From an uncultured virus (IMG/VR IMGVR_UViG_3300030117_005941) (lineage: Duplodnaviria; Heunggongvirae; Uroviricota; Caudoviricetes), in the IMG/VR virus record IMGVR_UViG_3300030117_005941, positions 1 through 64,000 of that record: a stretch of DNA of 64,000 nt; one strand, given 5' to 3'. Below the pieces are notes generated by a model that saw only the letters and a program-made list of their open reading frames with translations, made no database searches and was not told where the DNA came from. This document shows positions 20,844 through 36,691 of the stretch, piece by piece. Position numbers and translations under genes: made by a program. The stretch's first letter is position 1. Every line of letters starts with the position of its first letter.

Positions 20844-20894
20844 TTTTTAGTTATTTAATAGTTAATAAATGTAGACACCTGAGATGAACAGGTA

Positions 20895-20906
20895 ATTATA
20901 ATATAA
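20895..20906 (-). promoter_or_regulatory. Block A promoter-like motif upstream of nrdJ
   Basis: TTATATTATAAT on the minus strand about 50 nt before the nrdJ start. Confidence 0.45.
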
Positions 20907-20913
20907 TTAAAAA

Positions 20914-21093
20914 TTATGACTTAGGATACAAGTATGTGAAAGAAATAGTAAAAAATAAAAACCCAAAAGATACTATCATTGCAGGTTCCCACTTCTTAAC
21001 AAACTGTACCTCACATTGTTGCACGTATATTCCTAATAAAGGTGATTCTGAAAGCATCTCAATTCCAAAAGTAAATCTTTTCATATTTGTCAT
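20914..21093 (-). CDS. Hypothetical 59-aa protein with hydrophobic C-terminus
   Basis: MTNMKRFTFGIEML...IVSFGFLFFTISFTYLYPKS*; ATG start with A-rich leader, co-oriented with nrdJ. Confidence 0.6.
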   Translation of the reverse strand: MTNMKRFTFGIEMLSESPLLGIYVQQCEVQFVKKWEPAMIVSFGFLFFTISFTYLYPKS

Positions 21094-21115
21094 TTTTAAT
21101 TGGTTATATTTTTTT

Positions 21116-21127
21116 GTATATTATAAT
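21116..21127 (+). promoter_or_regulatory. Block A promoter-like motif GTATATTATAAT in a divergent intergenic region
   Basis: Preceded by a T-tract; identical copy at 22435; the core TATTATAATA is palindromic. Confidence 0.55.
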
Positions 21128-21156
21128 AGTATACAAATATAAAAAAAATAAATACT

Positions 21157-21468
21157 ATGGCAAATTCACCTTCAGGATTAAATGCAGATCCTAAATTTAA
21201 AATGATGATTGATGTCTTAAGAGACACAATGATACAAGGTTATGCTAAACAAGGAGCAACTTTTATCAATGATACAGCTCAACATACAGCAGGATATTAT
21301 GCAATACAAGGAATAAATTCTGCAAAATTAGATGTTAGTGATTGTGCTTTTGGTTCTGGCATGACAGACTTTGATGCAGATTTTACTATACCAAATGGAA
21401 CAATTATATATGGAAACTTTAATACAGTAAGTTTAGAAAGTGGTTCATGTATAGCTTATAAAAAATAA
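21157..21468 (+). CDS. Hypothetical small beta-rich protein, probably structural
   Basis: 103-aa ORF tightly coupled to the downstream lectin-like gene. Confidence 0.6.
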   Translation: MANSPSGLNADPKFKMMIDVLRDTMIQGYAKQGATFINDTAQHTAGYYAIQGINSAKLDVSDCAFGSGMTDFDADFTIPNGTIIYGNFNTVSLESGSCIAYKK

Positions 21469-21470
21469 TT

Positions 21471-22412
21471 ATGATTGGTATAGGTACATCAATATCTAAA
21501 AGTCATGTAATTAATGACCCTTCATCAGTATCTGACTTAGTTCTTTGGTATGATTTCACTAATGCAAGCAGCCTACGTCAAGATAGAGATGGTACTGGTA
21601 CAGTTAGTGCTAATAATGATCCTGTAGAATGGGCACGTAATCTAGCTAATGGTGATGCAAATGGAAATGTATTAGGATATTTTGCACGCTCATCAGCAGC
21701 AGGAAGTAGTTATGGTGCAACTTTTAAAACTGGTGGATCAGGAGGACAACCTTATATCCAATTTGCAAATGATGCTTCAGACAATACTAAAGGTCTTAGA
21801 TCTGGATATTTTAATAGTGGTAACTCTAATCTTGATGGGGGTGTAGCAGTTAATAAATTTTCTGATGTAGTTGTGGATATGAGAGACTTTACTCTAATAC
21901 AGGTTTTAAAACATGATGATGCTGATATAGATACAAGTAATGATTTTTCATTAGAAATGTTCGGTTATGCTAATGGAACTTCTAGTGACAATGCTACTTT
22001 TTATGGAATGAAAGATAGAAATTCTCCAGATAAATACAAAATACTTTATCTTGGAGACTCTTTAGCTGATGAAATTGAAACAAATGGTCAATTAGATACA
22101 AATCCACATGTATTATTTTCAAGATCTAAAAATGAAACTAATGGTTTTATATTAAAAATAGATGGTACTACACAAACAGATACTGAAACTCCAGAAGCAT
22201 TAACTTTTCACTTTGATTCAAGCTCTGATAGTGGAAGTGGATCAGCTGCTATTAGTATAGGAGCAATGAATACAGGAGATTCCGGAGCTACAACTAATGC
22301 ATGGCAAGGAGGAATTTATGAAATAATGATTTATAATAGAGCAATAACTGATGATGAAATGGCAGATTTAAATATATATTTTGCACAGAAGTACGGAATA
22401 ACTATAAGTTAA
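21471..22412 (+). CDS. Concanavalin A/LamG-like domain protein (putative fibre or decoration protein)
   Basis: MIGIG N-terminus, LVLWYDF, C-terminal ISIGA...WQGGIYEIMIYNRAITDDE...YFAQKYG. Confidence 0.7.
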   Translation: MIGIGTSISKSHVINDPSSVSDLVLWYDFTNASSLRQDRDGTGTVSANNDPVEWARNLANGDANGNVLGYFARSSAAGSSYGATFKTGGSGGQPYIQFANDASDNTKGLRSGYFNSGNSNLDGGVAVNKFSDVVVDMRDFTLIQVLKHDDADIDTSNDFSLEMFGYANGTSSDNATFYGMKDRNSPDKYKILYLGDSLADEIETNGQLDTNPHVLFSRSKNETNGFILKIDGTTQTDTETPEALTFHFDSSSDSGSGSAAISIGAMNTGDSGATTNAWQGGIYEIMIYNRAITDDEMADLNIYFAQKYGITIS

Positions 22413-22434
22413 TTTTAAAAATGATAATTTTTTA

Positions 22435-22446
22435 GTATATTATAAT
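22435..22446 (+). promoter_or_regulatory. Block A promoter-like motif GTATATTATAAT
   Basis: Identical to the copy at 21116; about 20 nt before ATG 22465. Confidence 0.55.
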
Positions 22447-22464
22447 ATCAAGTAGTTTATAATT

Positions 22465-22707
22465 ATGAATAGAAAAGAAATGCAAAAGATGGCAATGGAG
22501 CTCTATAATCAACAGATTATGGATAAGAATGATTCATTAATAGGAGATGCATTAAACGCAGTGGCTACAGAAAACATCATGCTTAAGAATACTATTGAAA
22601 GCATGAAACTCAAAACCTCAAAAGAAAACCTAATAAACCAAGGTAGAACTAAACCTGTAGATCTTAGTAAGAGAAGATCAGGTAAAAGAAAAGGAGGAAC
22701 AATATAA
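22465..22707 (+). CDS. Hypothetical protein with basic C-terminus
   Basis: 80-aa ORF in operon context. Confidence 0.6.
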   Translation: MNRKEMQKMAMELYNQQIMDKNDSLIGDALNAVATENIMLKNTIESMKLKTSKENLINQGRTKPVDLSKRRSGKRKGGTI

Positions 22708-22720
22708 ATAAATATTTAAC

Positions 22721-23128
22721 ATGGCAACAATTACAGCACAATTAAAATTAGATAGTGCAGCCGGAAGTTTATTAACTTCTGTATTAGCTATTGATGATAC
22801 AGCAACATTAACTAAGTTGGGAACTTCAGATGGTTTGGAAGATACAACTGGTTTAGCTAGAAGAACATTTGCAGCAGCAACAGAAACTCAACTATTGGCA
22901 GCTGCTAGTTATACAGATACAAAAGCTCATAAGTTATATATAAAGAATACAGATACCGGTCATACTACGCAAGTAGAAATAACTCTTGGTACTATAGGGG
23001 GATCTAAAAGTTTAGGTTTTTTAGATCCAGATGATTGGGCTTTTATACCTTGGCAAGGAACTGAAGATATAAATGTAAAATGTACATCTGCAACTACACA
23101 GGTTGAATGGATGTTAATTTTTGAATAA
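22721..23128 (+). CDS. Small paralogue family member 1 (MATITAQ type)
   Basis: Shares MAT(I/L)TAQ, Y(I/L)KN and WAF.PW with the next two ORFs. Confidence 0.75.
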   Translation: MATITAQLKLDSAAGSLLTSVLAIDDTATLTKLGTSDGLEDTTGLARRTFAAATETQLLAAASYTDTKAHKLYIKNTDTGHTTQVEITLGTIGGSKSLGFLDPDDWAFIPWQGTEDINVKCTSATTQVEWMLIFE

Positions 23129-23145
23129 TAAATAAAAAATAAGAT

Positions 23146-23511
23146 ATGGCAACTTTAACCGCGCAAACTAAACTAACATGTTCAGGAATAAATTCTGATG
23201 ATATGGCACTAGATGTTACAATGACTCCAACTGTAGCAGCAGGAGGTATTATTAGTAAAACTATTGATGTTAGATCAGGAGCAGCAGTAGAAATTTTGTA
23301 TGAAACACATTATGATGCTGGTGCAATAATTTATTTAAAGAATACAAGCAGCAGTGAAACTGCATATATAGAAACAAATGGTGGACATGCTTCTATAGTT
23401 TTAAGTGCAGGTCAATGGGCAGTATTTCCTTGGAATGCTGTTTCACATGATTTAAAAGCATATTCTTCTGCTAGTTTAGTATTAGAGATAGGAGTATTTT
23501 CCGCAACATAA
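23146..23511 (+). CDS. Small paralogue family member 2
   Basis: MATLTAQ...YLKN...GQWAVFPW...LEIGVFSAT. Confidence 0.75.
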   Translation: MATLTAQTKLTCSGINSDDMALDVTMTPTVAAGGIISKTIDVRSGAAVEILYETHYDAGAIIYLKNTSSSETAYIETNGGHASIVLSAGQWAVFPWNAVSHDLKAYSSASLVLEIGVFSAT

Positions 23512-23536
23512 CAATTAATAAAATAAGTATATAGAT

Positions 23537-23908
23537 ATGGCATCAACATTAACAGCACAAGTAAAAATAGATATTTCAGGAATAACTTCTGATCCTATTT
23601 CTGTAGATAAAACTTTAACTGCAACTAACATAGTAGCTGGAGGTATAAAAAGTAGATCAATTAATGATACTTCAGCAGCAGGAGAAACAGTAATAAGTTC
23701 TGGTGATTATAATGCAGGAACCATGGTTTATCTAAGAAATGCACATGCTTCAGAAACAATTTTTATAGAGTTATCAGCTAGTACAACAACTATACCTTTA
23801 GCAGCAGGTCAATGGGCTTTTTTCCCTTGGCAAGCAGGTGTTAGTTTAAAAGCGCATGCAGCAGCTAATACACCTATATTAGAGTGGGGAATATTTTCAG
23901 CAACATAG
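23537..23908 (+). CDS. Small paralogue family member 3
   Basis: MASTLTAQ...YLRN...GQWAFFPW...LEWGIFSAT. Confidence 0.75.
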   Translation: MASTLTAQVKIDISGITSDPISVDKTLTATNIVAGGIKSRSINDTSAAGETVISSGDYNAGTMVYLRNAHASETIFIELSASTTTIPLAAGQWAFFPWQAGVSLKAHAAANTPILEWGIFSAT

Positions 23909-23911
23909 ATT

Positions 23912-24196
23912 ATGGCAAAAGAACTATCAGAAGATTCAAAGTTTGAGATAAGTCTAAAGACACTTGGTGGAATAGGTTTTCTAATTACTACGCTAGTAAG
24001 TATGTGGTTTGTATTACAAGCAGATATTGCTGAAGCTAAAGAGTTACCAGCTCCTCCTGATCCTGAAGTTACTAGGATGGAGTTTCAGATGAAAGATGAG
24101 AACATAAGACTATCAATTAAAAACACAGAAGAGAATGTAAAAAAATTGGAAGATAGACTTATAAGGATAGAGGATAAAATAGATGACATGAAATGA
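23912..24196 (+). CDS. Membrane protein, single TM plus coiled coil
   Basis: TM LGGIGFLITTLVSMWFVL, Pro-rich linker, heptad C-terminus; ATGA overlap with the next gene. Confidence 0.65.
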   Translation: MAKELSEDSKFEISLKTLGGIGFLITTLVSMWFVLQADIAEAKELPAPPDPEVTRMEFQMKDENIRLSIKNTEENVKKLEDRLIRIEDKIDDMK

Positions 24197-24558
24197 AATG
24201 GATAGTTTTAATATGCCTAATGTTTTGTTATATATGCACTGGTCAACAGATGTTAACAGACAAAACATTTAGTGATAGCCAAGAGGGTGTAGCAGTTGTA
24301 GAGTTTTGGGCAGATTGGAATGCAAAAAATGAATGTACTTGGTTAGAGGATATAGAGGATGCAGATGTATATAGAATAGATCTTAATACAAATGCTGCTA
24401 AAGAAAACAAGATAACAGTACTACCAACTGTTATAGTATTTGATGATGGTGAAGAGGTTGAAAGATTTGAAGGAGATATATCTTTTAGTTTATGTCCAGA
24501 TAAAACACCTAAAAAAGTACAAAAAGAGATTAACGAATTAATATTAGATAAATTTTAA
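24193..24558 (+). CDS. Exported thioredoxin-fold protein without CxxC
   Basis: Signal-like N-terminus; VVEFWADWN in place of WCxxC; ITVLPTVIVF..GEEVERFEG cis-Pro region. Confidence 0.75.
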   Translation: MKWIVLICLMFCYICTGQQMLTDKTFSDSQEGVAVVEFWADWNAKNECTWLEDIEDADVYRIDLNTNAAKENKITVLPTVIVFDDGEEVERFEGDISFSLCPDKTPKKVQKEINELILDKF

Positions 24559-24559
24559 A

Positions 24560-24649
24560 ATGAAAAAATTTTTATGTAAATTATTATGTGTAGTTACTTT
24601 TAACTATGTGTGTTTAAAATGGTGTGGTACGTCATGCTGTAAAAAATAA
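24560..24649 (+). CDS. 29-aa peptide with six cysteines
   Basis: MKKFLCKLLCVVTFNYVCLKWCGTSCCKK*, starting 1 nt after the upstream stop and filling the gap; not in the ORF track. Confidence 0.6.
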   Translation: MKKFLCKLLCVVTFNYVCLKWCGTSCCKK

Positions 24650-24675
24650 TTGTAAATAAATAAATAAATAATAAT

Positions 24676-25041
24676 ATGGCAACTTTAACAAGTATATTAC
24701 AACTTTCAACAAGTGGTGTGGCTAAAGATGGTGTGAATATAACCTATTCTAACATAGCTAATGTTAAAAATCCTGCTATTCAAACTAGTACAGCAACTGT
24801 TGCAACAGGTGGTGATACAGATATTGTTACTCCTGCTTCTGATGCAGCAGCATATGTATATGTATGCAATAAAGATGCAACTAATTTTGTAAAGGTAAAA
24901 TTAGGAGGTAATGAATTGCTAAGAGTGGGTCCAGGAGAGGCTAACTTATTTTGTGTACACAGCAATAATGCATGTGCACTAAGAGCTGACACTGCTGAAT
25001 GCAAAGTTGAATTCGGATACTGGACATTTGACAAGTATTAA
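24676..25041 (+). CDS. Small paralogue family member 4 (MATLTS type)
   Basis: MATLTSILQLSTSG...IANVKNPA...N.DATNF...GPGE..FCVH...VEFGYWT. Confidence 0.75.
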   Translation: MATLTSILQLSTSGVAKDGVNITYSNIANVKNPAIQTSTATVATGGDTDIVTPASDAAAYVYVCNKDATNFVKVKLGGNELLRVGPGEANLFCVHSNNACALRADTAECKVEFGYWTFDKY

Positions 25042-25060
25042 TAAAAAATAATTATAAGAA

Positions 25061-25432
25061 ATGGGAACTTTAACAAGTGTAATTCAATTATCAACTTCTG
25101 GTATAGCAACGGATAGAGCAAGATTTAGTACATCTAAAATAGCTAACGTAAAAAATCCTGCTACACAAACAGGAGCTTTATCTATATCAACTATTACTAC
25201 AATAGCTACAGCACCTTCTGGAGCTACAGCTAGTGATGGTTTATATATGTATATACATAACACAGATGCAACTAACTTTTTAGTTGTAACATTTGGTTCT
25301 ACTAGCACCTTAAAGATTGGACCTGGAGAAACTAGTTTCTTCTGTGTTCATGACGGTATACTCGTAAAAGGTACTGCTAGTGCTGGAACTGTGAAGATAG
25401 AGTATGGTACTTGGACTTTAAGCAAATACTAA
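25061..25432 (+). CDS. Small paralogue family member 5
   Basis: Close paralogue of 24676..25041. Confidence 0.75.
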   Translation: MGTLTSVIQLSTSGIATDRARFSTSKIANVKNPATQTGALSISTITTIATAPSGATASDGLYMYIHNTDATNFLVVTFGSTSTLKIGPGETSFFCVHDGILVKGTASAGTVKIEYGTWTLSKY

Positions 25433-25436
25433 AAAC

Positions 25437-28400
25437 ATGAATAAATTTATACAAATATTAATTATATTTGTATTAGCCCCTTCTCTCTTGTTTTCACAAG
25501 AGTCTTGGATACATATACAATTGCAAACAGATCAGTATCCTAGTGAAACATCATGGGAGTTGTATGATATTAGTGGTGCTGCAATAGCTGTAAATGAACC
25601 GTTCTTATTACCAGAATTTTTACATGATACTGTAATAAGTATACCAGCAGGTGAATACATTATATCATTAAATGATACTTATGGTGATGGATTAGCTGGA
25701 TCTTTTTGGGGTGGCAATAACGGATGGTTTTCAATAAGCAACGCTTGTCAAGATAGTTTAATGTATGTAGAGGGTGCTTTTTACGAAGATTCACTACTAA
25801 CAACAGAACCTAGTGGACCAATATCTTTAGTAGATACTTTAACAATAGCACCTTGTGCTCCCCCTTTACAAGGTTGTACAGATGAATTAGCAGAAAACTT
25901 TAATGAAGATGCCTTAATTAATGATGGTAGTTGTACATATGTTTACGGATGTATAAATGAGTTTGCGTTTAATTATAATCCACTTGCAGCAGATATACCA
26001 ACAGGTATTATAACACCAGGTTCAACATGCAACTTGGTATCCTTTACTAATACTCACTTTGGAGTTGACCCCGAATTTTATTTACAATATCAAGATATTC
26101 TACAAATTGGTGCAAGAATATATGTTGGTGATAATGGACAGCAATGGTTTATAGATGCTGTGGCTTTTGATGGTGGAGGTTGTAATTCACCTACAACATT
26201 AATCTATGTAGTATCAACACAAGCAGAAGCAGATGGAAACCCTAATACAAATACTCCAGGTGTAAATGTAAATGCTGTAGTAGGAGAAACATGGCAGGTA
26301 GATCCTTGTATTTTTATTTATGGATGTACAGATCCAAATGCACTAAACTATAATGAAGAAGCAGGTATTGATGATGGATCTTGTATTAACATACCAGGTT
26401 GTACAGACCCAGAAGCAGCTAGTTATAACCCTGCAGCAACTACAGACGATGGTTCATGTAATGGAGGAGATATAACATGTACACCAGGTAAAACTTTAGT
26501 TACAGTTGAAATAATGGTAGATCAGTATGGTTGTGAAACTAGTTGGATAATATATGATCAGTATGGTGATGGAACACCTTTAGCAGAAGTAAATGATAAC
26601 ACAACGTATTGTGGTGTGCCAGTAGGTACTACAGTAGAATATCAAACTTGTATTGATGACAATACTAACATAATGTTTTGGTTACAAGACTCATATGGAG
26701 ATGGTCTTGGTGGAGCTCAATGGGGTGGTATAGATGGTACTTGGGCGGTATATACAGAATGTGGTGATACAATATCAGAAGGTATAGGTGATTTTGGAGA
26801 GCTTATAATTGATGTTGGTCAAGTAACACCATGTGCACCAGAGACTGTAGAAGGATGTACAAACAATGAGTATTTAGAGTTTAACCCTTATGCTAATGAA
26901 GATGACGGATCATGTGAAACAGAAAGAATATTTGGTTGTATAAATCCTGATGCTTTTAATTTTAACCCTGATGCAAATACACAACTATCAAACCCTAATT
27001 GTACAAATACATTAAGATTGACAGATTGGGCTGATAATGGTTGGGCAGGTTCATTTTTAGTAGTTACACAAGGTGATCAGTGGTGGGGACCTTTTACATT
27101 ACAAAGTGATCAGACAGTTTTTGAAACTGAAATTAATTTTAATACCAGTGAAATGGTTAAAGCTTATTTTTATTCTTTTGGTCAATCTCAACAAACAACA
27201 GAACAATGCAGCTTTGAAATAATTAATCCTATAGGGGATATTATATTAGAAGGTGGAACTAACCCTTACACAAATCCAATACTCTCTTATAACCAGTATA
27301 ACTTTCTATATCAAGGTCAAGCTCTGTGTGGTAATAACTGCATTCCTAAAATTTATGGTTGTTTAGATTTAGAAGCGGTTAACTTTGACCCAATAGCAAA
27401 TACAAGCAGTAATGACTGTTATTACAATCCTGGTTGTACTGATGCAGCTTATATTGAATATTATAATTATATAGAACAAAATGCAATAGAAGCAGATTTT
27501 GATAATGGAACATGTGAAGTATATGCTATATTTGGTTGTATAGATGAAACAGCGTATAATTATAATGAACTAGCAACAGTTAATCAAGTGGCTGTTGAAG
27601 ATGAAACAGATCCTTGTATACCAACCATTTTAGGTTGTACAGACCCATTAGCATTTAACTATGATCAAGAAGCAAATACTCTAGAACCAGGATCATGTGA
27701 GCCTGTTATTAATGGTTGTACAGACTCTGCTGCGTTTAACTATGATGAAGATGCTAACACAGATAATGACTCTTGTATAGAAATAGTATACGGTTGCACA
27801 GATGATGAAGCATTTAACTATTATCCAGATGCAAATGTAGATGATGATTCTTGTGAACCGGTAATTGAAGGTTGTACACAGTCAAATCAATTTAATTACA
27901 ACGAGCTAGCTAACACAGATGATGGTTCTTGTTATCCTTTTGTATATGGTTGTTTAAATCCAAACTCTTATACATATAATGATTATGATAATGATGGTGT
28001 TGGTAATCCTATAACAGGAATAAATGGTGTAGATGTTAATACAAATAATAATTTATGTGAACCTTTTATTTATGGTTGTTTAGATGAAACAGCATTTAAC
28101 TACAATTCAGAAGCTAACACAGCAGATGAAAATAATCCATGTGAACCATTTATATATGGTTGTATGGATCCAACTCAATTCAATTATGATGTTAACGTAA
28201 ATACTGACGATGGTTCTTGTATAGAATTTGCATATGGTTGTACAGACCCAGAAGCATTTAACTATGATGAAACAGCAAATACAAATGTTGGTTGTATATC
28301 ATTTGTTTATGGTTGTACAAATCCAGACGCCTTTAATTATAACCCACAAGCTAATACAGAAGATAATAGTTGTGAAGCTGTAGTTATTGGATGTACAGAT

Positions 28401-29303
28401 TCTACAGCAAACAATTATGATGAGAATGCTAATACTAATAATGGTTGTATATATCCAGTATATGGTTGTACTGATGAGGAAGCATTTAATTATAACTCTA
28501 ATGCTAACACAGATGATGGTTCATGTATACCTTTAATTTATGGGTGTACAGATAATACAATGTTTAATTATAATTCAGAAGCAAATACTGAAAATGGTAG
28601 TTGTATAGAATTTATATATGGTTGTATGGATTCAACAGCGTTTAATTATGATCCAACAGCTAACACAGATAATAGTTCATGTATCCCCATAATTGAAGGT
28701 TGCACTGATCCAAGTGCATTTAATTATAATGCAGATGCAAATACAGAAGACTTTTCATGTATTGAAGTTGTTATAGGTTGTACAGATCCAGATGCAATAA
28801 ATTATGACCCTTTAGCAAACACAGATTCAGGAGCTTGTATAGATGTATTAACAGGTTGTACTGATGTAAATGCATATAATTATAGTTTAACAGCTAATAC
28901 AGATGACGGTTCATGTGTTTATGATGCAGGATGTAGTGGAGGACCAGGAGAACCATATTGGTTACCTAATGAATGTTTTGCATGGGTAATATCAGTAGAT
29001 GATGAATGTTGTAATGGTCAATGGGATTCATATTGTGTAGAATTATATAATTATTGTGATTTAGGTTGGCCTATTGATTTAATAGAATCTTCTTCTGAAT
29101 TATTGATTTATCCTAATCCAGTAATTGATATATTAAATATAAATCAAGAAATTGATGTAAAATTATATGATATGGTAGGAAATTTAGTAATTTCTAAAGA
29201 AAACATAACACAAATAGATATGACTAATTTACCAAGTGGTATTTACAATTTAAATATAAACCACAATAATAAAATAATAAATAATAAAATTATAAAACAA
29301 TAA
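25437..29303 (+). CDS. Secreted Cys/Asp-rich repeat protein with a T9SS type A C-terminal sorting domain
   Basis: Sec signal ending ...LLFS-QE; about 25 GCxDxxAxNYxxxANxDDGSC repeats; C-terminal LIYPNP...LYDMVGNLV...IDMTNLPSGIY...KIIKQ. Confidence 0.85.
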   Translation: MNKFIQILIIFVLAPSLLFSQESWIHIQLQTDQYPSETSWELYDISGAAIAVNEPFLLPEFLHDTVISIPAGEYIISLNDTYGDGLAGSFWGGNNGWFSISNACQDSLMYVEGAFYEDSLLTTEPSGPISLVDTLTIAPCAPPLQGCTDELAENFNEDALINDGSCTYVYGCINEFAFNYNPLAADIPTGIITPGSTCNLVSFTNTHFGVDPEFYLQYQDILQIGARIYVGDNGQQWFIDAVAFDGGGCNSPTTLIYVVSTQAEADGNPNTNTPGVNVNAVVGETWQVDPCIFIYGCTDPNALNYNEEAGIDDGSCINIPGCTDPEAASYNPAATTDDGSCNGGDITCTPGKTLVTVEIMVDQYGCETSWIIYDQYGDGTPLAEVNDNTTYCGVPVGTTVEYQTCIDDNTNIMFWLQDSYGDGLGGAQWGGIDGTWAVYTECGDTISEGIGDFGELIIDVGQVTPCAPETVEGCTNNEYLEFNPYANEDDGSCETERIFGCINPDAFNFNPDANTQLSNPNCTNTLRLTDWADNGWAGSFLVVTQGDQWWGPFTLQSDQTVFETEINFNTSEMVKAYFYSFGQSQQTTEQCSFEIINPIGDIILEGGTNPYTNPILSYNQYNFLYQGQALCGNNCIPKIYGCLDLEAVNFDPIANTSSNDCYYNPGCTDAAYIEYYNYIEQNAIEADFDNGTCEVYAIFGCIDETAYNYNELATVNQVAVEDETDPCIPTILGCTDPLAFNYDQEANTLEPGSCEPVINGCTDSAAFNYDEDANTDNDSCIEIVYGCTDDEAFNYYPDANVDDDSCEPVIEGCTQSNQFNYNELANTDDGSCYPFVYGCLNPNSYTYNDYDNDGVGNPITGINGVDVNTNNNLCEPFIYGCLDETAFNYNSEANTADENNPCEPFIYGCMDPTQFNYDVNVNTDDGSCIEFAYGCTDPEAFNYDETANTNVGCISFVYGCTNPDAFNYNPQANTEDNSCEAVVIGCTDSTANNYDENANTNNGCIYPVYGCTDEEAFNYNSNANTDDGSCIPLIYGCTDNTMFNYNSEANTENGSCIEFIYGCMDSTAFNYDPTANTDNSSCIPIIEGCTDPSAFNYNADANTEDFSCIEVVIGCTDPDAINYDPLANTDSGACIDVLTGCTDVNAYNYSLTANTDDGSCVYDAGCSGGPGEPYWLPNECFAWVISVDDECCNGQWDSYCVELYNYCDLGWPIDLIESSSELLIYPNPVIDILNINQEIDVKLYDMVGNLVISKENITQIDMTNLPSGIYNLNINHNNKIINNKIIKQ
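27340..28920 (+). repeat. Tandem array of ~25-aa Cys-rich coding repeats
   Basis: Recurrent GGTTGTA...TTTAA(C/T)TA...GC(T/A)AA(C/T)AC DNA units. Confidence 0.9.
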
Positions 29304-29322
29304 CGCCTTTTAAAATAAATAT

Positions 29323-29331
29323 ATATTTATT
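29323..29331 (+). promoter_or_regulatory. Block B promoter-like motif ATATTTAT(A/T)
   Basis: First of six intergenic copies, each shortly before a start codon. Confidence 0.55.
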
Positions 29332-29351
29332 AAGGAACAACATTATAAAAA

Positions 29352-30521
29352 ATGGCAAATAATAAACTTTACGGATATACTCCTACAACTTCAAAAGAAA
29401 AAGAAGGTAATAGATTAGACCAATATAATCCATACGAATTTAGAAAAGGTATGGATTATGAATTAACTTCTATGGGATGCATGAGACTAGCAGAATCTAC
29501 TATTGAAGAAAGAGAAAAAGCTACAGAATCTGTTCTTAAAAATTTAGAAAGTCACCCTGCTTATTATTCAGGTTTAATACAATTTGAAGCAGGAATGAAC
29601 CATGCGGGTAAAATTGATGGTAAAAATTTTAAAACTTGGCTTAAAGATCATTTTGAAGTAAATAAAATGCAAGAAATTCAAAATGGATTTGATAGAAAAA
29701 ATGTTACTTCAGATGTAAGAGCTAAAAGTTTAAAAACACCAAAATTTGATGATCAAATGACTGAACCTAAAGGATACAATAAAAAAGATTACACAACTCC
29801 TTTTGAAACAAAACCTTCTCCTTTAAAAGAAGAACAACTTAGAAAAACAATTAGAAATGAAGCTTTAAAAATTCTTAAAGAACAAGATGAAGAAGAATTT
29901 GACGCTGATGTTGATAAAGCAGATAAAGCAGCTACTAAAGCTGCTAAAAAATCAAAATCAAGTAATAGATTTGATTTAGAAAGAGAAGCAATTAAAGACT
30001 TATTATATAGAGGTAAAAAAGGAAAAGAAAGCGAATATACAGAAGAAGAACCAGCTCCTAAAAGTATTCTTGATATAAAAAATCAAATGTTAGATTTATA
30101 TAAAAATAAATTTAAAGGAAAAGAAGGAGGTGTAGATGACTATAATGCAGAACTAAAAAAAGTAAATGAAAAATTTAAAAAAATATTAGAAAAGCATGTA
30201 AAAACTTTTGGTGAAGAAGGAAAAGGTAACAATGTTACTTTAAATATTGTATATGGAGAAAAATTACCTGATACTATTAAATTGTTAGGTGCAAGACTAA
30301 AAGCTTTAGAAAAAGAAGAAGAAGAAGATATAGTATCAGCAAATGAATTAAGACGTGAAGTAGCAAAAACAGATATGACACGTGAACAACATATTAAACT
30401 TCTTGAAATAATTAAAAAACATGGTGTCTCTTTAAGAGAAGGAGCTATGGGTGTTAAGCAATATTATAATATAGCAAAAGAAGCATATTTAGAAGGTGTT
30501 GCAAACGGTTTAAAAATATAA
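29352..30521 (+). CDS. Hypothetical charged protein, probable internal head protein
   Basis: NPYEFRKGMDYEL...VLKNL..HPAYYS N-domain; LKEEQLRKTIRNEALKILKEQ motif. Confidence 0.6.
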   Translation: MANNKLYGYTPTTSKEKEGNRLDQYNPYEFRKGMDYELTSMGCMRLAESTIEEREKATESVLKNLESHPAYYSGLIQFEAGMNHAGKIDGKNFKTWLKDHFEVNKMQEIQNGFDRKNVTSDVRAKSLKTPKFDDQMTEPKGYNKKDYTTPFETKPSPLKEEQLRKTIRNEALKILKEQDEEEFDADVDKADKAATKAAKKSKSSNRFDLEREAIKDLLYRGKKGKESEYTEEEPAPKSILDIKNQMLDLYKNKFKGKEGGVDDYNAELKKVNEKFKKILEKHVKTFGEEGKGNNVTLNIVYGEKLPDTIKLLGARLKALEKEEEEDIVSANELRREVAKTDMTREQHIKLLEIIKKHGVSLREGAMGVKQYYNIAKEAYLEGVANGLKI

Positions 30522-30540
30522 AATATAAAAATAAATAGTT

Positions 30541-30690
30541 ATGAATTGGATAAATAGTTGGAGAGAAGGTAATAAAAAAAATATTGTCGACTTTACATTA
30601 AGATTTGGAGTATTAACTCTATTTGAACTTAAGTGGAATCCCGGAATTAAGTTTAGATTATTAATATTAAATTTTGGGATTGAATTATAA
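30541..30690 (+). CDS. Hypothetical 49-aa protein
   Basis: MNWINSWREGNKK...FRLLILNFGIEL*, fills the intergenic gap; not in the ORF track. Confidence 0.65.
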   Translation: MNWINSWREGNKKNIVDFTLRFGVLTLFELKWNPGIKFRLLILNFGIEL

Positions 30691-30724
30691 GACTATAAGC
30701 TAATAATATTAAAATTAAATAAAG

Positions 30725-31174
30725 ATGAATTTAACAGAATTAAAAAAAATGGTTAAAGAAGAATATAATAAATTCTTAGAACAAGATATGCCTGACATGC
30801 CTGACATGCCTCAACCATCAGCAGGTATGGAAGATCCTACAATAGCAGTATCTGACAATGACATAGATCTTGATGGAGGAGAAAATCCAGAAGATACTTT
30901 ACGTGCAATTTTTGACATGCTAAAAGATTTTTTTGAAGGAGATGATAAACCTGCTCCTAAAGCACCTAAAGCTAATAATAAAAAAGATGATGATAAAGGT
31001 GATGACAAAAAAGATGATGATAAAAAAGATGATGATAAAAAAGATGATGATAAAAAAGATGATGTCAAAGAATCATATAATAGAAAATTTAGAAGAAAAA
31101 TTTCTCCTAATAAATCTAATGATATGAAAATTTTACAAGAAAGGTTTAAAAAATTAGCTAATATTATAAAATAA
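30725..31174 (+). CDS. Acidic low-complexity protein, probable prohead scaffold or internal protein
   Basis: LTELKKMVKEE N-terminus, KKDDD repeats, LQERFKKLANI C-terminus. Confidence 0.6.
   Translation: MNLTELKKMVKEEYNKFLEQDMPDMPDMPQPSAGMEDPTIAVSDNDIDLDGGENPEDTLRAIFDMLKDFFEGDDKPAPKAPKANNKKDDDKGDDKKDDDKKDDDKKDDDKKDDVKESYNRKFRRKISPNKSNDMKILQERFKKLANIIK
30980..31063 (+). repeat. 15-bp coding tandem repeat AAAAAAGATGATGAT (KKDDD)
   Basis: About five imperfect copies visible. Confidence 0.9.
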
Positions 31175-31178
31175 TATT

Positions 31179-32420
31179 ATGACTCTTGATGAGTTATTAT
31201 TAGAATGGTCTTATAGGTCAGAAAAGGGGTATCCATCTTTGGATAGCCCTTCTGATATCTTTACTCTTAAACAAATTTTAGAAAAATTAAAATTACCTTC
31301 TAATAAAATTATTAATAATTTAAAAGAAGGTACTAAAGCATCTAATAGTAGAAATGCTATAGCTAAAATAGTAGATTCTCCTGAAGGAAAAGAATCAGGT
31401 TTAACTACTATGTCAAATGTTTATAGAGTAGGTAATCAAAAAAAGATTGATAAAGATAAATTTATGGAAATTATAATTTCTCTTTTCAATAATCCTCAAA
31501 TTACAATTCATGAACCTAAATCAGGTCCTAATAAAAGTTCAAAATATAATATGTTTGAATTTGAAACTGAAGAAGGTCAAGTACAAATAGTTTTAGCAGG
31601 TGGAGCTAATGAAGGAGAAGTTTATGAACAAGATCTTTTAACTAAAATACAAGGATCTGTTGGTTTTCCTATGGACGAAATAGAATTTCCTGATATTCAA
31701 AAATTATTTACAACTATAGGTATTGATCCTGAAGATCTTACCCCTGATGATGCTGAATTTATGGGAGCTGCAGATACAAAAAGACAATTATCATTTGAAG
31801 GACCTACAGATTTAGGATCTAAAGTAGCAGATCTTGTAATACATGCTGAACAAGATATTTATTTATCTATAAAAAATAGAAAGGGTTCTGGAATATATAA
31901 TGGAGGAAATGTTCCTTTTGTTTATTTAAATGATGAAGGTCAAGCTATATTTGATGAAAGTAAATATAATGAAAAACCATTATTTAAAGAAATATTTGAA
32001 GCTTGTGGTATTGACCCACAAAGAATGGCAGATGGTTTAAATGCTTATATTAATGGAGAAGGAGAAAAAGGAGAATGGGAACCATCATCTGGTGTAGATG
32101 TAAATAAAATAAGAAATTTACTAGCATCTTCATTTGGATATAACTATTGGTATGTAAGAGAAAAATCAGGTGGTGAAATATTTGTTCATTATATAGATGG
32201 TGAACAAGGAGCTTATGATATGGTAGGAGAATTGAATGAAAATGCAGTACAAATAAAATATCCAGGTACTACATCTAAAAATTTAGATGTAGTTATTGAA
32301 ACTAATAGTCCTGTTTTTCAACAAGATGAAGGAAAAGTACCTTTAAAATACCAAATAGTCATAAGAAACGCATCAGGTAAAATCCTTCCTGCAAGGCTTA
32401 ACATAAGAACCAATAAATAA
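31179..32420 (+). CDS. Putative PD-(D/E)xK (restriction-endonuclease-like) protein with N-terminal leader
   Basis: GEVYE helix and KVADLVI...YLSIK motif; leader LLEWSYRSEKGYP...LKEG. Confidence 0.5.
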   Translation: MTLDELLLEWSYRSEKGYPSLDSPSDIFTLKQILEKLKLPSNKIINNLKEGTKASNSRNAIAKIVDSPEGKESGLTTMSNVYRVGNQKKIDKDKFMEIIISLFNNPQITIHEPKSGPNKSSKYNMFEFETEEGQVQIVLAGGANEGEVYEQDLLTKIQGSVGFPMDEIEFPDIQKLFTTIGIDPEDLTPDDAEFMGAADTKRQLSFEGPTDLGSKVADLVIHAEQDIYLSIKNRKGSGIYNGGNVPFVYLNDEGQAIFDESKYNEKPLFKEIFEACGIDPQRMADGLNAYINGEGEKGEWEPSSGVDVNKIRNLLASSFGYNYWYVREKSGGEIFVHYIDGEQGAYDMVGELNENAVQIKYPGTTSKNLDVVIETNSPVFQQDEGKVPLKYQIVIRNASGKILPARLNIRTNK

Positions 32421-32455
32421 TTTGGTTTTTCAAAATTCCCTTATTACATATAAAT
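32421..32455 (+). promoter_or_regulatory. Possible early/middle promoter (TTTGG...TTATTACATAT)
   Basis: TTTG resembles the Bacteroidota -33 element; a similar arrangement occurs at ~55382-55412 before the primase. Confidence 0.3.
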
Positions 32456-32473
32456 TAATAAATAAAAATAATT

Positions 32474-32710
32474 ATGAAATATTCAAGACAAGTACAAGGA
32501 GCTCTTAATAGATTAGATCAAACCCTATTAGCTCTTAATAGATTAGTTAAAGAAGGCAAACAAACAGAAGCTATTCAATTTATGGAACAAGGAGCATTAA
32601 AAGATGCTTTTGAAGACTTACAAAATATAATTACAGTAGCAGGAGGACCAGGAAATACAGCAGATATGGGAGCTAGAGGTACAAATCAAGCAGGTACATT
32701 TAGAGAATAA
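32474..32710 (+). CDS. Hypothetical protein
   Basis: 78-aa ORF with A-rich leader. Confidence 0.6.
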   Translation: MKYSRQVQGALNRLDQTLLALNRLVKEGKQTEAIQFMEQGALKDAFEDLQNIITVAGGPGNTADMGARGTNQAGTFRE

Positions 32711-32724
32711 TAAAAAAATAGGTT

Positions 32725-33510
32725 ATGTTATCAGCAGAAAAAATCCAATCAAATTGGGATCGTTATATAAATGAAATAAAAACAAATATATCTAAAGAAA
32801 GATCGGATATATTATTACCTTTTTTAGAAAAATTTGAAGAACGAATAATGATGATGCCTGCAGCAGCTAAAAATTGGCACCATTCAGCATTTGCAGGTGG
32901 TTATGTTGATCATGTATTACGTGTATATGATTGCGCAAATGAATTATATAAAACGTGGAGTAAAATGGGAGGAGATATATCTACATATACAATTGAAGAA
33001 ATGCATTTCGTTGCTTTATTCCATGATTTAGGTAAAATGGGCCAACAAGAAGGTGAATACTATCAACCAAACGATTCACAATGGCATATTGATAAATTAG
33101 GTCAAATATATAAATTTAATACTGATATCCCTGCAATGAAAATACCAGAACGATCTTTATTTTTATTACAACAAATAGGATGTAAAGTATCTCAAAATGA
33201 ATATATTGGTATTAAAATACATGATGGTTTATATGATGAAAGTAATAAATTTTATTTTATGTCTAGTATGAAAGAGACTAAATTAAGATCACATTTACCT
33301 TTACTTATGCATCAAGCAGACCATATGGCAGCTCAAATTGAATTTGAAATATGGAATAATGCAACAGATGCTGTTCCTAAACAATCTAAACCTAAAAATG
33401 GTTCTAAGGGAGATAAAACAATAAGAAATGCTAAAAAAATAAATACTAAAAATAATCCGAATCTATCTAACGCTACTTTAGATGTTATAGATTCTTTTTT
33501 TAAAGATTAA
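32725..33510 (+). CDS. HD-domain phosphohydrolase
   Basis: HHSAFAGGYVDH, ALFHDLGK, IHDG, HQAD. Confidence 0.85.
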   Translation: MLSAEKIQSNWDRYINEIKTNISKERSDILLPFLEKFEERIMMMPAAAKNWHHSAFAGGYVDHVLRVYDCANELYKTWSKMGGDISTYTIEEMHFVALFHDLGKMGQQEGEYYQPNDSQWHIDKLGQIYKFNTDIPAMKIPERSLFLLQQIGCKVSQNEYIGIKIHDGLYDESNKFYFMSSMKETKLRSHLPLLMHQADHMAAQIEFEIWNNATDAVPKQSKPKNGSKGDKTIRNAKKINTKNNPNLSNATLDVIDSFFKD

Positions 33511-33513
33511 ATT

Positions 33514-33768
33514 ATGGGATGGACAATAGCAACAATAATACTTAGTATATTTACAACTGCAATGGGATTTTCTATTAGAAATTTACTTATTAAAAATGAA
33601 AAACTAGAAGATTTTATATCAAAACAAAGTGATGCTATAAATGCTTGCGATCAAAGATTAAAACAAATCGATAATAAAAATATATTTTATGCGGATGATG
33701 AAATAGGTTGGTTTTTTAAAGAATTAAAAAAAATTCAAGACGCATTAAATGAATTTACCCTTAAATAA
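33514..33768 (+). CDS. Small membrane-anchored coiled-coil protein
   Basis: N-terminal TM; FYADDEIGWFF motif. Confidence 0.65.
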   Translation: MGWTIATIILSIFTTAMGFSIRNLLIKNEKLEDFISKQSDAINACDQRLKQIDNKNIFYADDEIGWFFKELKKIQDALNEFTLK

Positions 33769-33771
33769 AAT

Positions 33772-34527
33772 ATGATTACTAAAACTCAAACTAAATTAGA
33801 AGTAAACTCTATCCCTCCTCCTAAAAAAAAAAGAGGAAGAAAAAGAACTAAAAAAAGATACTTTACTGAAGATACAGATGCTGCTATAAAAGAATATTTA
33901 GCATCTGAAAACCAAAAAGAAAGAGATTCAATATATAAAAATAGAATACATTATCCTTTTTATAAATTAGCTGAAAATTTAATTCATACATTCAAATTTT
34001 ATTATACAGAAGTAGATAATTTAGAAGACTTAAAACATGAAGTAATTTGTTTTTTATTAGAAAAATTAGATTACTTTAAGCCAGAAAAAGGAACTAAAGC
34101 ATTTAGTTATTTTTCAATTGTAGGAAAAAATTATCTTATATTATATAATAATAACAATTATAAAAAGAAAAAAATAACAACAGATATTATGGCTGCTGAT
34201 GAAGATGAAGGAGTTTTACATCAATTAGGTAGAGATAATAGAAAAAAAGAATTAAAAGATTTTATAGATTATTTTACAGAATATGTTGATAAACATATAT
34301 TTACCTTATTTAAAAAAGATAAAGATAGAAAAGTATGTGACGCTATTAATACTCTTTTTAAACGTAGAGAAAATTTAGAAATTTTTAATAAAAAAGCATT
34401 ATATATTTATATTCGTGAAATGACAAATGTAGATACTCCTGTTATTACTAAAGTAACTAAAATACTAAAAAAACATTACAAAAAATTATATTTAGAATAT
34501 AAATCAACAGGATATGTAAAAATTTAA
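33772..34527 (+). CDS. Phage sigma-factor-like protein (T4 gp55-like late sigma)
   Basis: KLAENLI...EDLKHEVI...FKPEKGTKAFSYFSIVGKNY resembles sigma region 2 of gp55. Confidence 0.6.
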   Translation: MITKTQTKLEVNSIPPPKKKRGRKRTKKRYFTEDTDAAIKEYLASENQKERDSIYKNRIHYPFYKLAENLIHTFKFYYTEVDNLEDLKHEVICFLLEKLDYFKPEKGTKAFSYFSIVGKNYLILYNNNNYKKKKITTDIMAADEDEGVLHQLGRDNRKKELKDFIDYFTEYVDKHIFTLFKKDKDRKVCDAINTLFKRRENLEIFNKKALYIYIREMTNVDTPVITKVTKILKKHYKKLYLEYKSTGYVKI

Positions 34528-34535
34528 TTCTTTCC

Positions 34536-34545
34536 ATATTTATAA
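34536..34545 (+). promoter_or_regulatory. Block B promoter-like motif ATATTTATAA
   Basis: Intergenic, upstream of the baseplate hub operon. Confidence 0.6.
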
Positions 34546-34559
34546 TAAAATATGAAGAT

Positions 34560-34946
34560 ATGGACTCATTAAACCAAATATTATTTGATGATAAATCATT
34601 TTCTGATTTATTAAAAGAAATTCACAAAAACCAATCTAAAAAATCAAAACAATTAGCCAGTTTAATTGCTGAATTACGCCCTCTTATTACTAATTTAGGA
34701 GATGCTACAGTAGTAGTACCCTTAATTAAAGAATATATGGAAATTAGTGTAAAAAATGATGATCAATTAATAAAAATGGCTGCTATAGTACAACGTTTAT
34801 CTACAGGTGCTTCAAGCACGGGTGATGGAGGTATGTTAACTGAAGAAGAAATGGAACAACTTCAATCAGTAGCTGAAGAAATATCTAAAACAGTAGAAAA
34901 ACCAAAACAACTAGAAAGTCCTAAAGAAGAAAATAATGAGATTTAA
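34560..34946 (+). CDS. Hypothetical helical protein
   Basis: 128-aa ORF overlapping the next gene. Confidence 0.65.
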   Translation: MDSLNQILFDDKSFSDLLKEIHKNQSKKSKQLASLIAELRPLITNLGDATVVVPLIKEYMEISVKNDDQLIKMAAIVQRLSTGASSTGDGGMLTEEEMEQLQSVAEEISKTVEKPKQLESPKEENNEI

Positions 34947-36087
34947 AGTAGTTAGAGTAATAGATATTATATTAGATGAATCCCATTCACATTATTTACG
35001 ATATGGTAAAGAAGAATCTGTAGGAACTATATTTTGGAGTCCTATAAGTAGAAGAAATCCTGTAGTAACAAATCTTGATCTTTTTCAAACAGCTAAACCT
35101 TTAAATTACAGTATATCTCATTATCCTGTACCTAATGAAATATTACATATATTAGGAGCTCCTTCTTCTACATACAATGAAAATAATAGTTTTGATTGGT
35201 ATTATATGCCTCCTATATCAATTTATAAAGACCCTTCAAGTAATGCTTACCCTACAGACATAAGAGGTGATATTGGAGAAGGTTCTGGTTTTTACGAAGG
35301 TCGTTATTTTAAATCAAATGAAAATGTAAGACCATTAAGACCATATGAAGGAGACATAATGATAGAGGGTCGTTTTGGACAGTCTATAAGATTTGGATCT
35401 ACTATAAATAATACTTTAACTGCTCATCCTAATGAATGGAGTAATGAAGGAAAAGTAGGAAACCCTATTACTATTATAAGAAATGGCCAACAAGGAAATG
35501 AAGGGTATGAAGTAGGAAATCCCGATAAAGAAACTTTTAAACATATATTAGAAAATATAAATGAGGATGATTCAAGTATATATTTATGTTCTACACAACA
35601 AATATCAAACTTTATTCCTGCTTCACTTTATAAAGAATCATATGGGGTAGAAGATTCAGGAACAAAACCTCAAGAAACTGTAATTATGCCTAATAATGAA
35701 TTTCCACCTTCTATTGAAGAAAAATTAACATCTTATACTCCTCCTATACCACCAGAAGAAATACAAAATACAAGTGAAATTAACCCAGAAATAGACCCTG
35801 AAACAGCACAATATGATATAGCCCCTACAGAACAACAAATAGTACAACCTACAGATACAGACAACTCAATTCCTCCTAATCTTATAGTCCCTGATAATAT
35901 TGACCCTAATGTATTAGCAGCTCCTATAGATAATTTATCTGTTTCTCCATTTACTATATCTGGAGATGAAAATACTCCTACTAATATTGATGATCAAATA
36001 ACAATACCAGGTTATAACCCTGATTTACCTAATGGAGGAGGTACTTTTTATGATGATGGAGAAGATTTTGATGGAGAATTAGATTAA
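34936..36087 (+). CDS. Putative baseplate hub/spike protein, gp5-like N-terminal part
   Basis: OB-like N-terminus (YPVPNEIL), GDIMIEGRFGQSIRFGS, Pro/acidic tail; baseplate context. Confidence 0.5.
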   Translation: MRFKVVRVIDIILDESHSHYLRYGKEESVGTIFWSPISRRNPVVTNLDLFQTAKPLNYSISHYPVPNEILHILGAPSSTYNENNSFDWYYMPPISIYKDPSSNAYPTDIRGDIGEGSGFYEGRYFKSNENVRPLRPYEGDIMIEGRFGQSIRFGSTINNTLTAHPNEWSNEGKVGNPITIIRNGQQGNEGYEVGNPDKETFKHILENINEDDSSIYLCSTQQISNFIPASLYKESYGVEDSGTKPQETVIMPNNEFPPSIEEKLTSYTPPIPPEEIQNTSEINPEIDPETAQYDIAPTEQQIVQPTDTDNSIPPNLIVPDNIDPNVLAAPIDNLSVSPFTISGDENTPTNIDDQITIPGYNPDLPNGGGTFYDDGEDFDGELD

Positions 36088-36098
36088 AAATATAAAAT

Positions 36099-36689
36099 AT
36101 GCCCTTTAACCTATTAAGTAATATAAAAAGCAAAAAAGCAGAACAAGAAGGAATAAATAATTTCCCTGGAGTTGATGTAGAAACAGATCCTACCTTAACT
36201 TATGATTTTATTGTTAATAATTTAATTCGTTTACATGCACAATGTATTACCCCTATAATAGAAACCTTTGGTGAAAGTAATATAGGAATTACTTCAGCAT
36301 ATAGATGTAAAGATTTAAATAAAGCAGTAAATGGAGTTGAAAATTCTCAACACATTAAAGGGTATGCTATAGACATAGTTAGTATAAATCATCCTACATC
36401 TGTAATATTTAATTGGGCAGTTCAAAATTTAACTGATTACTACCAATTAATTTGGGAATATCCAGAACAAGGACAATTTAATAATCCTAATAACTTTAAT
36501 CCATCGTGGATTCATATATCTTTAACAGATGGATTTAACCCTAAAACTAAATCTATAGCTACTAAAATAGAAAAAGTACATGAAGCATATTTAAGAAACT
36601 CAGAACTTCAAATTTCTTCTAAAACTCCTTATAGAAGTGGAGAATATACACATAATATTGCGATAGCAGATAATAATTTATTTTTATAA
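36099..36689 (+). CDS. Peptidase M15A-like peptidoglycan hydrolase
   Basis: ITSAYRC..LN..VNG..NSQH..GYAID...WIH zinc motif. Confidence 0.85.
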   Translation: MPFNLLSNIKSKKAEQEGINNFPGVDVETDPTLTYDFIVNNLIRLHAQCITPIIETFGESNIGITSAYRCKDLNKAVNGVENSQHIKGYAIDIVSINHPTSVIFNWAVQNLTDYYQLIWEYPEQGQFNNPNNFNPSWIHISLTDGFNPKTKSIATKIEKVHEAYLRNSELQISSKTPYRSGEYTHNIAIADNNLFL

Positions 36690-36691
36690 AA

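Follow-up and report, generated by a model that had tools for sequence, protein, structure and literature searches.

The window analysed here comprises 64,000 nucleotides (nt), bases 1-64000 of the 73,554-base IMG/VR virus record IMGVR_UViG_3300030117_005941 (G000), and carries at positions 25437-29303 an open reading frame (ORF) of 1288 amino acids (aa) with 69 cysteines and a series of short Cys repeats (the Cys-repeat gene). The sequence changes within this ORF from one phage lineage to another, and the record is very probably no hybrid phage genome but a chimera of two marine phages that co-occurred, made in silico during assembly. A crAss-like phage of ~114 kb would supply window positions 1-27974 and an Immutovirus-like myovirus positions 27975 to the record end, with hosts of both phages likely to be of Flavobacteriia type. 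A 44-nt identical stretch (27975-28018), lying within alleles 80-85% identical over much of their length, would have acted as a shared node of the short-read graph, which the assembler would have reached along the thinly covered crAss-like path and departed from along the more deeply covered myovirus path. The product would be one contig of ~28 kb of crAss-like DNA and 45.6 kb of myovirus DNA, while the true crAss-like continuation would be left as a separate contig starting at the repeat. That the assembler, rather than a cell or a tube, made the join is what we infer from the observations below, in which G001, G002 and G003 denote relative records, L0xx relative contigs, P01xx relative proteins, and X1, X2, X3 and X5 sequencing runs.

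The crossover was located by mismatches toward either parent. G002, a 55,251-base record recovered by search with the 389-aa ORF adjoining the Cys-repeat gene, aligns over its positions 7404-54997 to G000 25865-73554. Mismatches between the two, counted per 500 nt from 25865, were 96, 73, 88 and 146 (to 27864) and then 16 (to 28364), with the last one at 27974; none was seen from 27975 until the bin 32865-33364, after which 0-5 per bin were found to the end. Toward contigs carrying the crAss-lineage (L-type) allele, the 5' part of the gene from 25634 to ~28018 showed 0-19 mismatches per 200 nt (~90-100% identity) in all six contigs compared (L023, L029, L030, L031, L034 and L035), including none at all over 26479-27278 in L034, followed by 31-73 mismatches per 200 nt in all six. 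The first mismatch to L023, L034, L029 and G003 falls at 28019. The 5' part of the window ORF is 71-85% identical to G002, and the 3' part is 63-84% identical to the L-type contigs. The crossover corresponds to ORF residues 847-861 and sits in the one atypical unit (42 aa, residues 838-879) found among 25 repeat units of ~26 aa with the form GCTDxxAFNYxxxANTDDGSC. An earlier note, made from the letters of the window alone, had proposed that two phage blocks meet at this gene, most likely through misassembly. The meeting point does lie inside the ORF, but neither at the gene edges nor in the generic 26-aa repeat, and the misassembly it suspected takes the form of an ORF that starts out as one allele and ends, beyond the shared 44 nt, as the other.

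Related copies in both lineages, which the earlier note had taken a misassembly to imply, were indeed found, the crAss-like and the myovirus lineage each having an allele of its own. The L-type allele is carried by G001, L023, L034, L035, G003 and four metagenome contigs, in a crAss-like context in L023, L032, L035 and G003, and the G002-type allele by G002 and L041. An intact natural form of the L-type allele is given by P0124, a 1392-aa protein found within the window ORF's own 90% cluster and present on 3 contigs (the longest 56 kb). P0124 equals the window ORF at 890 of the 890 first residues, shows its first mismatch at residue 891 and has an L-type tail beyond residue 890, with 45-84% identity to the window ORF per 100-aa bin; the G002 protein in turn equals the window ORF over residues 825-1288. 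The fused 1288-aa form is recorded on one contig only, its own, and full-length L-type forms on 10, 3, 3, 2, 2 and 1 contigs, some of them up to 114.5 kb, with the P0124 siblings P0125, P0126 and P0128 on 2, 2 and 1 contigs. A join at ~25547, where similarity to G001 stops and two X1 contigs end (25546 and 25548), was rejected, as L023 and P0124 run through that position; the 44-mer across 25547 occurs in no other IMG/VR contig and is not informative either way.

The missing half of the crAss-like gene was recovered as well. G003, a 33,611-base record, was found with a pattern diagnostic of L-type sequence immediately right of the crossover. Read in reverse complement, it starts at the equivalent of G000 27970, 5 nt ahead of the crossover; its first 49 nt (27970-28018) show no difference from the window, and from 28019 it follows the L-type allele. 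It encodes residues 957-1392 of P0124 at 436 of 436 positions after a 10-N gap of its own, the 80 residues printed before this gap being residues 846-925 of P0124, and is then colinear with G001 71383-102405, mostly at 80-94%. Because G003 starts at the crossover and encodes the rest of P0124, the left part of the window and G003 read as two halves of one natural gene, and of one crAss-like genome, that were separated at the shared stretch.

Independent contigs of the left lineage were then compared for what follows the Cys-repeat gene. The last gene of the left block (block A), at 25061-25432, matched 7 IMG/VR loci, and the L-type 44-mer just left of the crossover was present in 4 metagenome and 3 IMG/VR contigs. 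The left-type contigs comprise L022-L028, L029-L032, L034 and L035, of which 11 are distinct after overlap removal, besides G001 and G003; the 114-kb record L035 and the metagenome contigs L030 and L032, which have identical mismatch profiles, are probably one genome. None of the 11 continues into the myovirus block beyond small shared modules, and 8 of the 11 reach G001-like genes past the position of the Cys-repeat gene (72-81 kb of G001); L027 and L030 end inside the gene.

These comparisons bear on the possibility of a genuine recombinant, in which homologous recombination across the 44-nt island in a co-infected Flavobacteriia cell fused the two genomes, to yield a viable hybrid or a packaged dead-end product. 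If true, it would be a phage with crAss virion RNA polymerase (RNAP) and cargo genes beside a contractile-tail baseplate module. Earlier exchange of this gene is indicated by alleles 80-85% identical at the nucleotide level, set against only three other short common segments of G001 and G002 at 66-74%, and block A and the 5' part of the gene are equally deep in run X1; both observations would suit a recombinant. However, the two flanks differ hardly at all from extant parents (no mismatch to P0124 in the first 890 residues; 99.9% nt identity to G002 over 45.6 kb), the fused ORF and the passage into the myovirus block are each confined to this one record among the contigs compared, the true continuation of the crAss-like parent exists as G003 starting at the crossover, and the depth ratio of the blocks varies among runs. 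Moreover, the left end of G000 falls within a giant crAss ORF, so that a hybrid would have to hold still more crAss structural genes beside the myovirus tail module. We therefore regard a natural recombinant as very unlikely, and an assembly chimera remains the far better account of the record.

Composition changes across the same position. The ORFs between 5 and 20843 have a G+C content at third codon positions (GC3) of 0.14-0.21 and AAG/(AAA+AAG) of 0.23-0.32, and the ORFs from 29352 on have values of 0.06-0.12 and ~0-0.1. Pooled over block A (12 ORFs, 7263 codons), GC3 is 0.147 and G-ending codons for Lys, Glu and Gln make up 366 of 1463 (0.25), versus 0.087 and 95 of 2481 (0.038) for the 36 ORFs from 29352 to the record end, bearing out the codon step between two blocks that the earlier note had judged by eye. 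The same two signatures extend genome-wide, with GC3 of 0.150 and a G-ending fraction of 0.241 in G001 (82 ORFs) and 0.090 and 0.039 in G002 (44 ORFs), and the tetranucleotide profile of block A correlates at 0.92 with the non-homologous rest of G001 and at 0.75 with G002. Within the Cys-repeat ORF of the window itself, GC3 is 120/845 (0.142) before and 40/442 (0.090) after the crossover (Fisher p 0.0076), and G-ending codons number 19/98 and 2/38 (p 0.061). The corresponding two parts of the gene are even in G002 (0.089 and 0.090) and in L023 (0.128 and 0.154).

That the window is natural and G002 (or the set of G003 and P0124) was misassembled instead could be argued from the finding of the exact G002 Cys-repeat protein on 1 contig only, and from G002 being probably a fragment. 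By contrast, the G002 gene is compositionally even with G002's own signature, and L041 (~82% identical to G002) independently links a G002-type 5' part, 87-97% identical to G002 and 79-86% to the window, to the same downstream genes as in G002. The full-length L-type allele, for its part, is present on at least 3 + 10 + 3 contigs, some up to 114.5 kb, in crAss-like context. We give this inverted explanation next to no weight, and the window, not its relatives, remains the probable chimera.

Depth was compared as contig-level word depths of Logan contigs (k=31), not as reads, with block A counted at >=95% likeness. In run X1, which holds 0.93 of the sampled words and may be the source run, depth was 7.1-8.1 in block A, 7.4-8.6 in the 5' part of the gene and 11.7-15 in the right block (block C), a step from 7.1-8.6 to 11.7-15. 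In run X2 it was 4.2-4.6, 7.6-7.8 and 17.6-23.9, stepping from 4.2-4.6 in block A to 17.6-23.9 in block C. Block A was sparse (bins mostly <4) in X3 and X5 because of the 95% likeness threshold, the 5' part of the gene having 5.8-7.3 and 4.4-5.3 and block C 4.4-6.5 and 4.8-6.6, respectively. Since the depth ratio across the join differs between runs, the blocks are not in fixed proportion; a coverage step of this kind had been named by the earlier note as evidence against a hybrid. The presence of the 5' part without block A in X3 and X5 could have meant that this part belongs to the myovirus, but is explained by L-type strains falling under the 95% threshold, block A of L023, for example, being 93.7% identical to that of the window.

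An artificial chimera could also be physical: template switching at the 44-nt stretch, while the library was prepared or amplified, would have joined the DNAs in vitro, and the assembler would have followed real chimeric molecules. Amplified viromes do form template-switched chimeric molecules, template switching needs just such an identical stretch, and the two parents, the crossover in identical sequence, the orphan continuation and the depth step would fit equally. By contrast, nothing points to amplification here, and chimeric molecules are usually a small minority that rarely wins the consensus path. We consider a join made in the tube improbable, if somewhat less so than one made in a cell, and keep to a join made by the assembler.

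Several points weigh against that conclusion. The sample of G003 may differ from that of the window, in which case G003 only shows that assemblies break at this place. The 80-85% identity of the alleles speaks for past natural exchange, so that recombination at the site is mechanistically possible. A real recombinant present alongside a G002-type parent would likewise produce a depth step, and, the diagnostic sites being 45 nt apart, no 31-mer of the Logan contigs can span the join. Finally, the CheckV completeness of 100% for G002 is doubtful, and no argument from genome size is used; such an argument from CheckV (G002 100%, G001 98%) had been considered and was dropped for G002 as a probable fragment. 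On the other side, each flank has a parent of its own, the breakpoint lies in identical sequence, coverage differs across the join in a ratio that varies from run to run, and the displaced continuation is found as a contig.

Inter-genome chimeric contigs are a well-known class of artefact in short-read metagenomes (e.g. PMC7299287). The window resembles them in a join at a shared exact repeat, in the coverage and composition steps and in a continuation found separately, and differs from them in that the shared repeat is a 44-nt island in an exchanged accessory gene, and not an rRNA operon, a transposase or a strain duplicate. Left as it stands, the 73.5-kb record would be misleading in taxonomy, in predicting hosts and in estimating completeness, and would mislead anyone claiming a myovirus with a crAss-type RNAP. 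A division at the crossover is called for, the left part then going with a G003-like contig into one crAss-like genome of ~114 kb and the right part joining G002 within a larger Immutovirus-like genome.

The alleles themselves carry a biological message. Two unrelated lineages of marine-Bacteroidota phages, one of crAss-like podoviruses and one of Immutovirus-like myoviruses, carry a Cys-repeat gene of 1288-1392 aa with a type IX secretion system (T9SS) tail beside a thioredoxin-like gene, and G001 and G002 have otherwise only short segments in common, the four segments found (65-74% identity) being the Cys-repeat gene, the thioredoxin-like region, a 353-aa ORF and the holin. At 80-85% nucleotide identity, as against almost no other similarity between the genomes, the alleles indicate that this host-surface accessory gene was once exchanged between phages with, probably, Flavobacteriia hosts in common; each allele matches the codon usage of its own genome. 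Such shared islands are predictable sites of chimeric assembly.

The T9SS tail was assigned by Por_Secre_tail (PF18962; 1.4e-11 over residues 1224-1286, 45.0 bits versus a cut-off of 27) and TIGR04183 (2.1e-11, 43.6 bits versus a cut-off of 23), and the alleles of G001 and G002 also end in a T9SS sorting domain above the curated cut-offs. At the other end, the hydrophobic N-terminus MNKFIQILIIFVLAPSLLFSQ, visible by sequence, is a putative export leader. All three phage alleles thus end as T9SS cargo of Bacteroidota does, and differ from such cargo in that the gene is phage-borne in two lineages, with export and function putative from sequence. Neither the 26-aa repeat nor the N-terminal domains matched a Pfam or NCBIfam model, and an ESM Atlas search with ORF residues 20-145 yielded nothing but unnamed viral clusters. 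A search with ORF residues 1-640 gave 2754 proteins at E <= 0.001, nearly all among the matches listed having the sorting domain, and some of these relatives sit on contigs up to 300 kb. One scan of genome contigs for cellular relatives found a single one, in a metagenome-assembled genome of Flavobacteriales at 34% identity, a weak hint at the host only. No account of a phage-borne T9SS Cys-repeat gene was met in literature listings and the openings of abstracts, sources that give no proof of absence.

The surroundings of the gene vary. It is absent from the crAss-like relatives L025 and L026, and the order of the Cys-repeat gene, the 353-aa ORF and the thioredoxin-like module differs among contigs (L042, an 81-kb IMG/VR contig), which fits a mobile accessory cassette. 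An exported thioredoxin-fold ORF lacking a classical CxxC lies just upstream of the gene in both lineages (in G002 at 6517-6840), and a rhodanese-domain ORF is present in G002 at 2020-2319 (Pfam 2e-14); the two may be helpers for disulfide formation in a Cys-rich cargo. Stretches like the 26-aa Cys repeat were also seen in myovirus-block ORFs at 59920-63612 and 66540-69275 (record coordinates), with blastn matches to the repeat at 60.9-61.3 kb and 66.9-68.3 kb of the record. Because other myovirus-block ORFs hold similar stretches, the repeat is not confined to the T9SS-tailed gene.

The crAss-like identity of block A was examined through G001, a 115,139-base record recovered by search with the RNAP-bearing ORF, whose end and start overlap by 98 identical bases. 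G000 and G001 are colinear over positions 4-24791 and 44182-68978, respectively, with 78-90% nt identity. G001 has a portal (phrog_6547, 1.3e-90), a major head protein (phrog_11589, 7e-27), a TerL fragment (8.1e-06) and replication genes, so that the crAss-type portal, major capsid and TerL are found in the colinear relative, not within the window itself; among the 129 phage records matched by its portal are crAss-type, Cellulophaga and Flavobacterium phages, and no match to the gp6-like wedge was found in G001. The earlier note's call of a crAss-type virion RNAP in the left block is weakly supported, by a DFDID (DxDxD) motif and by tblastn of residues 431-855 of ORF 7246-12825, which matched 66 phage records, weakly (best E 1e-5, 23-29% identity); the best 20 of the 66 are crAss-type phages, most of these matches being annotated as RNA polymerase. 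The same ORF had no match in PHROGs, Pfam or PDB sequence searches; likewise, tblastn of ORF1 and PDB sequence searches with ORF1 and ORF2 were empty, and megablast of window 20000-40000 against phages gave no match. The transcription block of crAss phages is described as several giant proteins, one with DxDxD, with an RNAP packaged in the virion (PMC7886860). Block A resembles that of gut crAss phages and Cellulophaga phage phi14:2 in being a giant-protein transcription block with DFDID in one protein and a weak RNAP match, and G001 in having a portal and a head that match PHROG families, the portal also matching crAss-type phages. It differs in the very low RNAP identity, in a DxDxD protein that in G001 is a single 4979-aa ORF, and in belonging to a marine phage of ~114-115 kb, which by its sequence matches would fall within or next to Crassvirales.

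The right block was assigned by its baseplate genes. Here the gp25- and gp6-like contractile baseplate genes named by the earlier note were recovered, through GPW_gp25, the PHROG wedge families and 44.6% identity of the gp6-like wedge to the baseplate wedge protein of Flavobacterium phage vB_FspM_immuto (immuto), a 160-kb myovirus and the nearest cultured relative of G002. Its gp55-like sigma found no Pfam, PHROG or NCBIfam match in any ORF scanned. Block C together with the last 9.5 kb of the record is 99.9% identical to G002. Of the ORFs in G002, 18 of 44 match immuto with gene order mostly kept (77-117 kb of immuto), as against 1 of 82 in G001. The features shared by block C and G002 with immuto are the phosphohydrolase, gp25-like, wedge and fibre genes, the GIY-YIG endonuclease, the primase and an NMNAT-like giant protein. 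The differences are identities of 25-53%, the lack of sheath, head or terminase in the available 55 kb of G002, and the first 14 kb of G002 (including the Cys-repeat gene), which has no counterpart in immuto 1-150,000 of 160,366.

No tail sheath or tube genes were found in the window or G002, and no head, portal and terminase set was detected in G000 or G002 by PHROG, Pfam and NCBIfam. The absence there of detectable head, packaging and sheath genes probably reflects partial genomes, the immuto counterparts lying beyond the shared region: the terminase, gp20 portal, gp23 capsid and sheath genes of immuto are at 119-149 kb (sheath at 147 kb), outside the region in common with G002. Counting capsid and terminase sets is not applicable to the record, because neither partial genome carries a detectable set. 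Because of its synteny with the 160-kb immuto and its lack of head and packaging genes, G002 is probably a fragment despite a CheckV value of 100%.

The features of the window are collected in Table 1; nearly all of its ORFs are on the + strand.

Table 1. Positions of the two phage blocks, the Cys-repeat gene and other features in the window
Feature	Position	Strand	Description
Block A	1..25436	+	Part of crAss-like phage genome, colinear with G001; giant transcription/cargo ORFs, class II ribonucleotide reductase, five small paralogous ORFs, exported thioredoxin-like ORF
10-N scaffold gap	7215-7224		Makes one giant ORF look like two, 5-7255 and 7246-12825
DFDID (DxDxD) motif	9445..9459	+	Residue 734 of ORF 7246-12825, putative crAss-type virion RNA polymerase
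Second 10-N scaffold gap	16946-16955		Splits ORFs 13166-16978 and 17031-18746
Class II (B12-dependent) ribonucleotide reductase gene	18978-20843	-	In block A
Five small paralogous ORFs, 121-135 aa	starts 22721, 23146, 23537, 24676, 25061		Within 22721-25432
Exported thioredoxin-like ORF	24193-24558		In block A
5' part of Cys-repeat ORF	25437..27974	+	crAss-lineage (L-type) allele; hydrophobic leader at the N-terminus, the first repeats and, between units, three stretches of ~110-130 aa outside the repeat
Crossover	27975..28018	+	44 nt identical in window, G002, L023, L034, L029 and G003
3' part of Cys-repeat ORF	28019..29303	+	Myovirus-lineage (G002) allele, including T9SS C-terminal sorting domain
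Block C	29352..64000	+	Part of Immutovirus-like myovirus genome; HD phosphohydrolase, M15 peptidase, gp25, gp6-like wedge, fibre-like ORFs, GIY-YIG endonuclease, primase
gp25-like gene	38540-38947		Pfam GPW_gp25 9.5e-11
gp6-like wedge	38950-40845		PHROG baseplate wedge families

The record is thus a scaffold, and both of its gaps fall in low-depth block A, a pattern that counts in favour of a join made by the assembler. The flanks of the first share 7 nt and overlap by ~7 nt when mapped on G001, giving a true gap of about -7, and G001 has its single 4979-aa ORF where the window shows two. At the second gap, G001 has a single 1938-aa ORF in place of 13166-16978 and 17031-18746. Judged by this alignment, the ORF boundaries at both places are artefacts of the 10-N gaps.

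The ribonucleotide reductase gene had a depth of 59-176 in three of the four runs, far above its neighbours there, and of 20-42 in X5, which suggests near-identical copies in other abundant genomes of these samples. The five small paralogous ORFs begin with MATLTAQ or MGTLTS, have high second-position GC and reach pairwise identities of up to 46%; they are kept upstream of the Cys-repeat gene in crAss-like relatives, and a single weak PHROG match was obtained for them, to phrog_30535 (unknown function).

The earlier note had also assigned motifs to each block. Exact copies of the two, both AT-rich, are indeed specific to their blocks, but the counts are no more than chance: GTATATTATAAT (<=1 mismatch) had 5 matches versus 3.25 expected, with 23 of 100 shuffles reaching 5, and ATATTTATAA had 5 versus 2.61 expected, with 12 of 100 shuffles reaching 5. 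Copies of ATATTTATAA at 34536, 50292 and 56344 (+) stand 24-27 nt upstream of the starts of ORFs 34560, 50317 and 56371, and in this setting the motif may be a phage promoter element, though its overall count is not above chance.

No terminal repeat was found in G000. The right ends of G000 and G002 are within 254 bases of each other, and the first ~950 bases of G002 (L018) are ORF-poor with short direct and palindromic repeats, the first 500 having a GC of 0.38 versus ~0.27 elsewhere. These first ~950 bases and the near-coincident right ends may represent assembly break points or a genome terminus.

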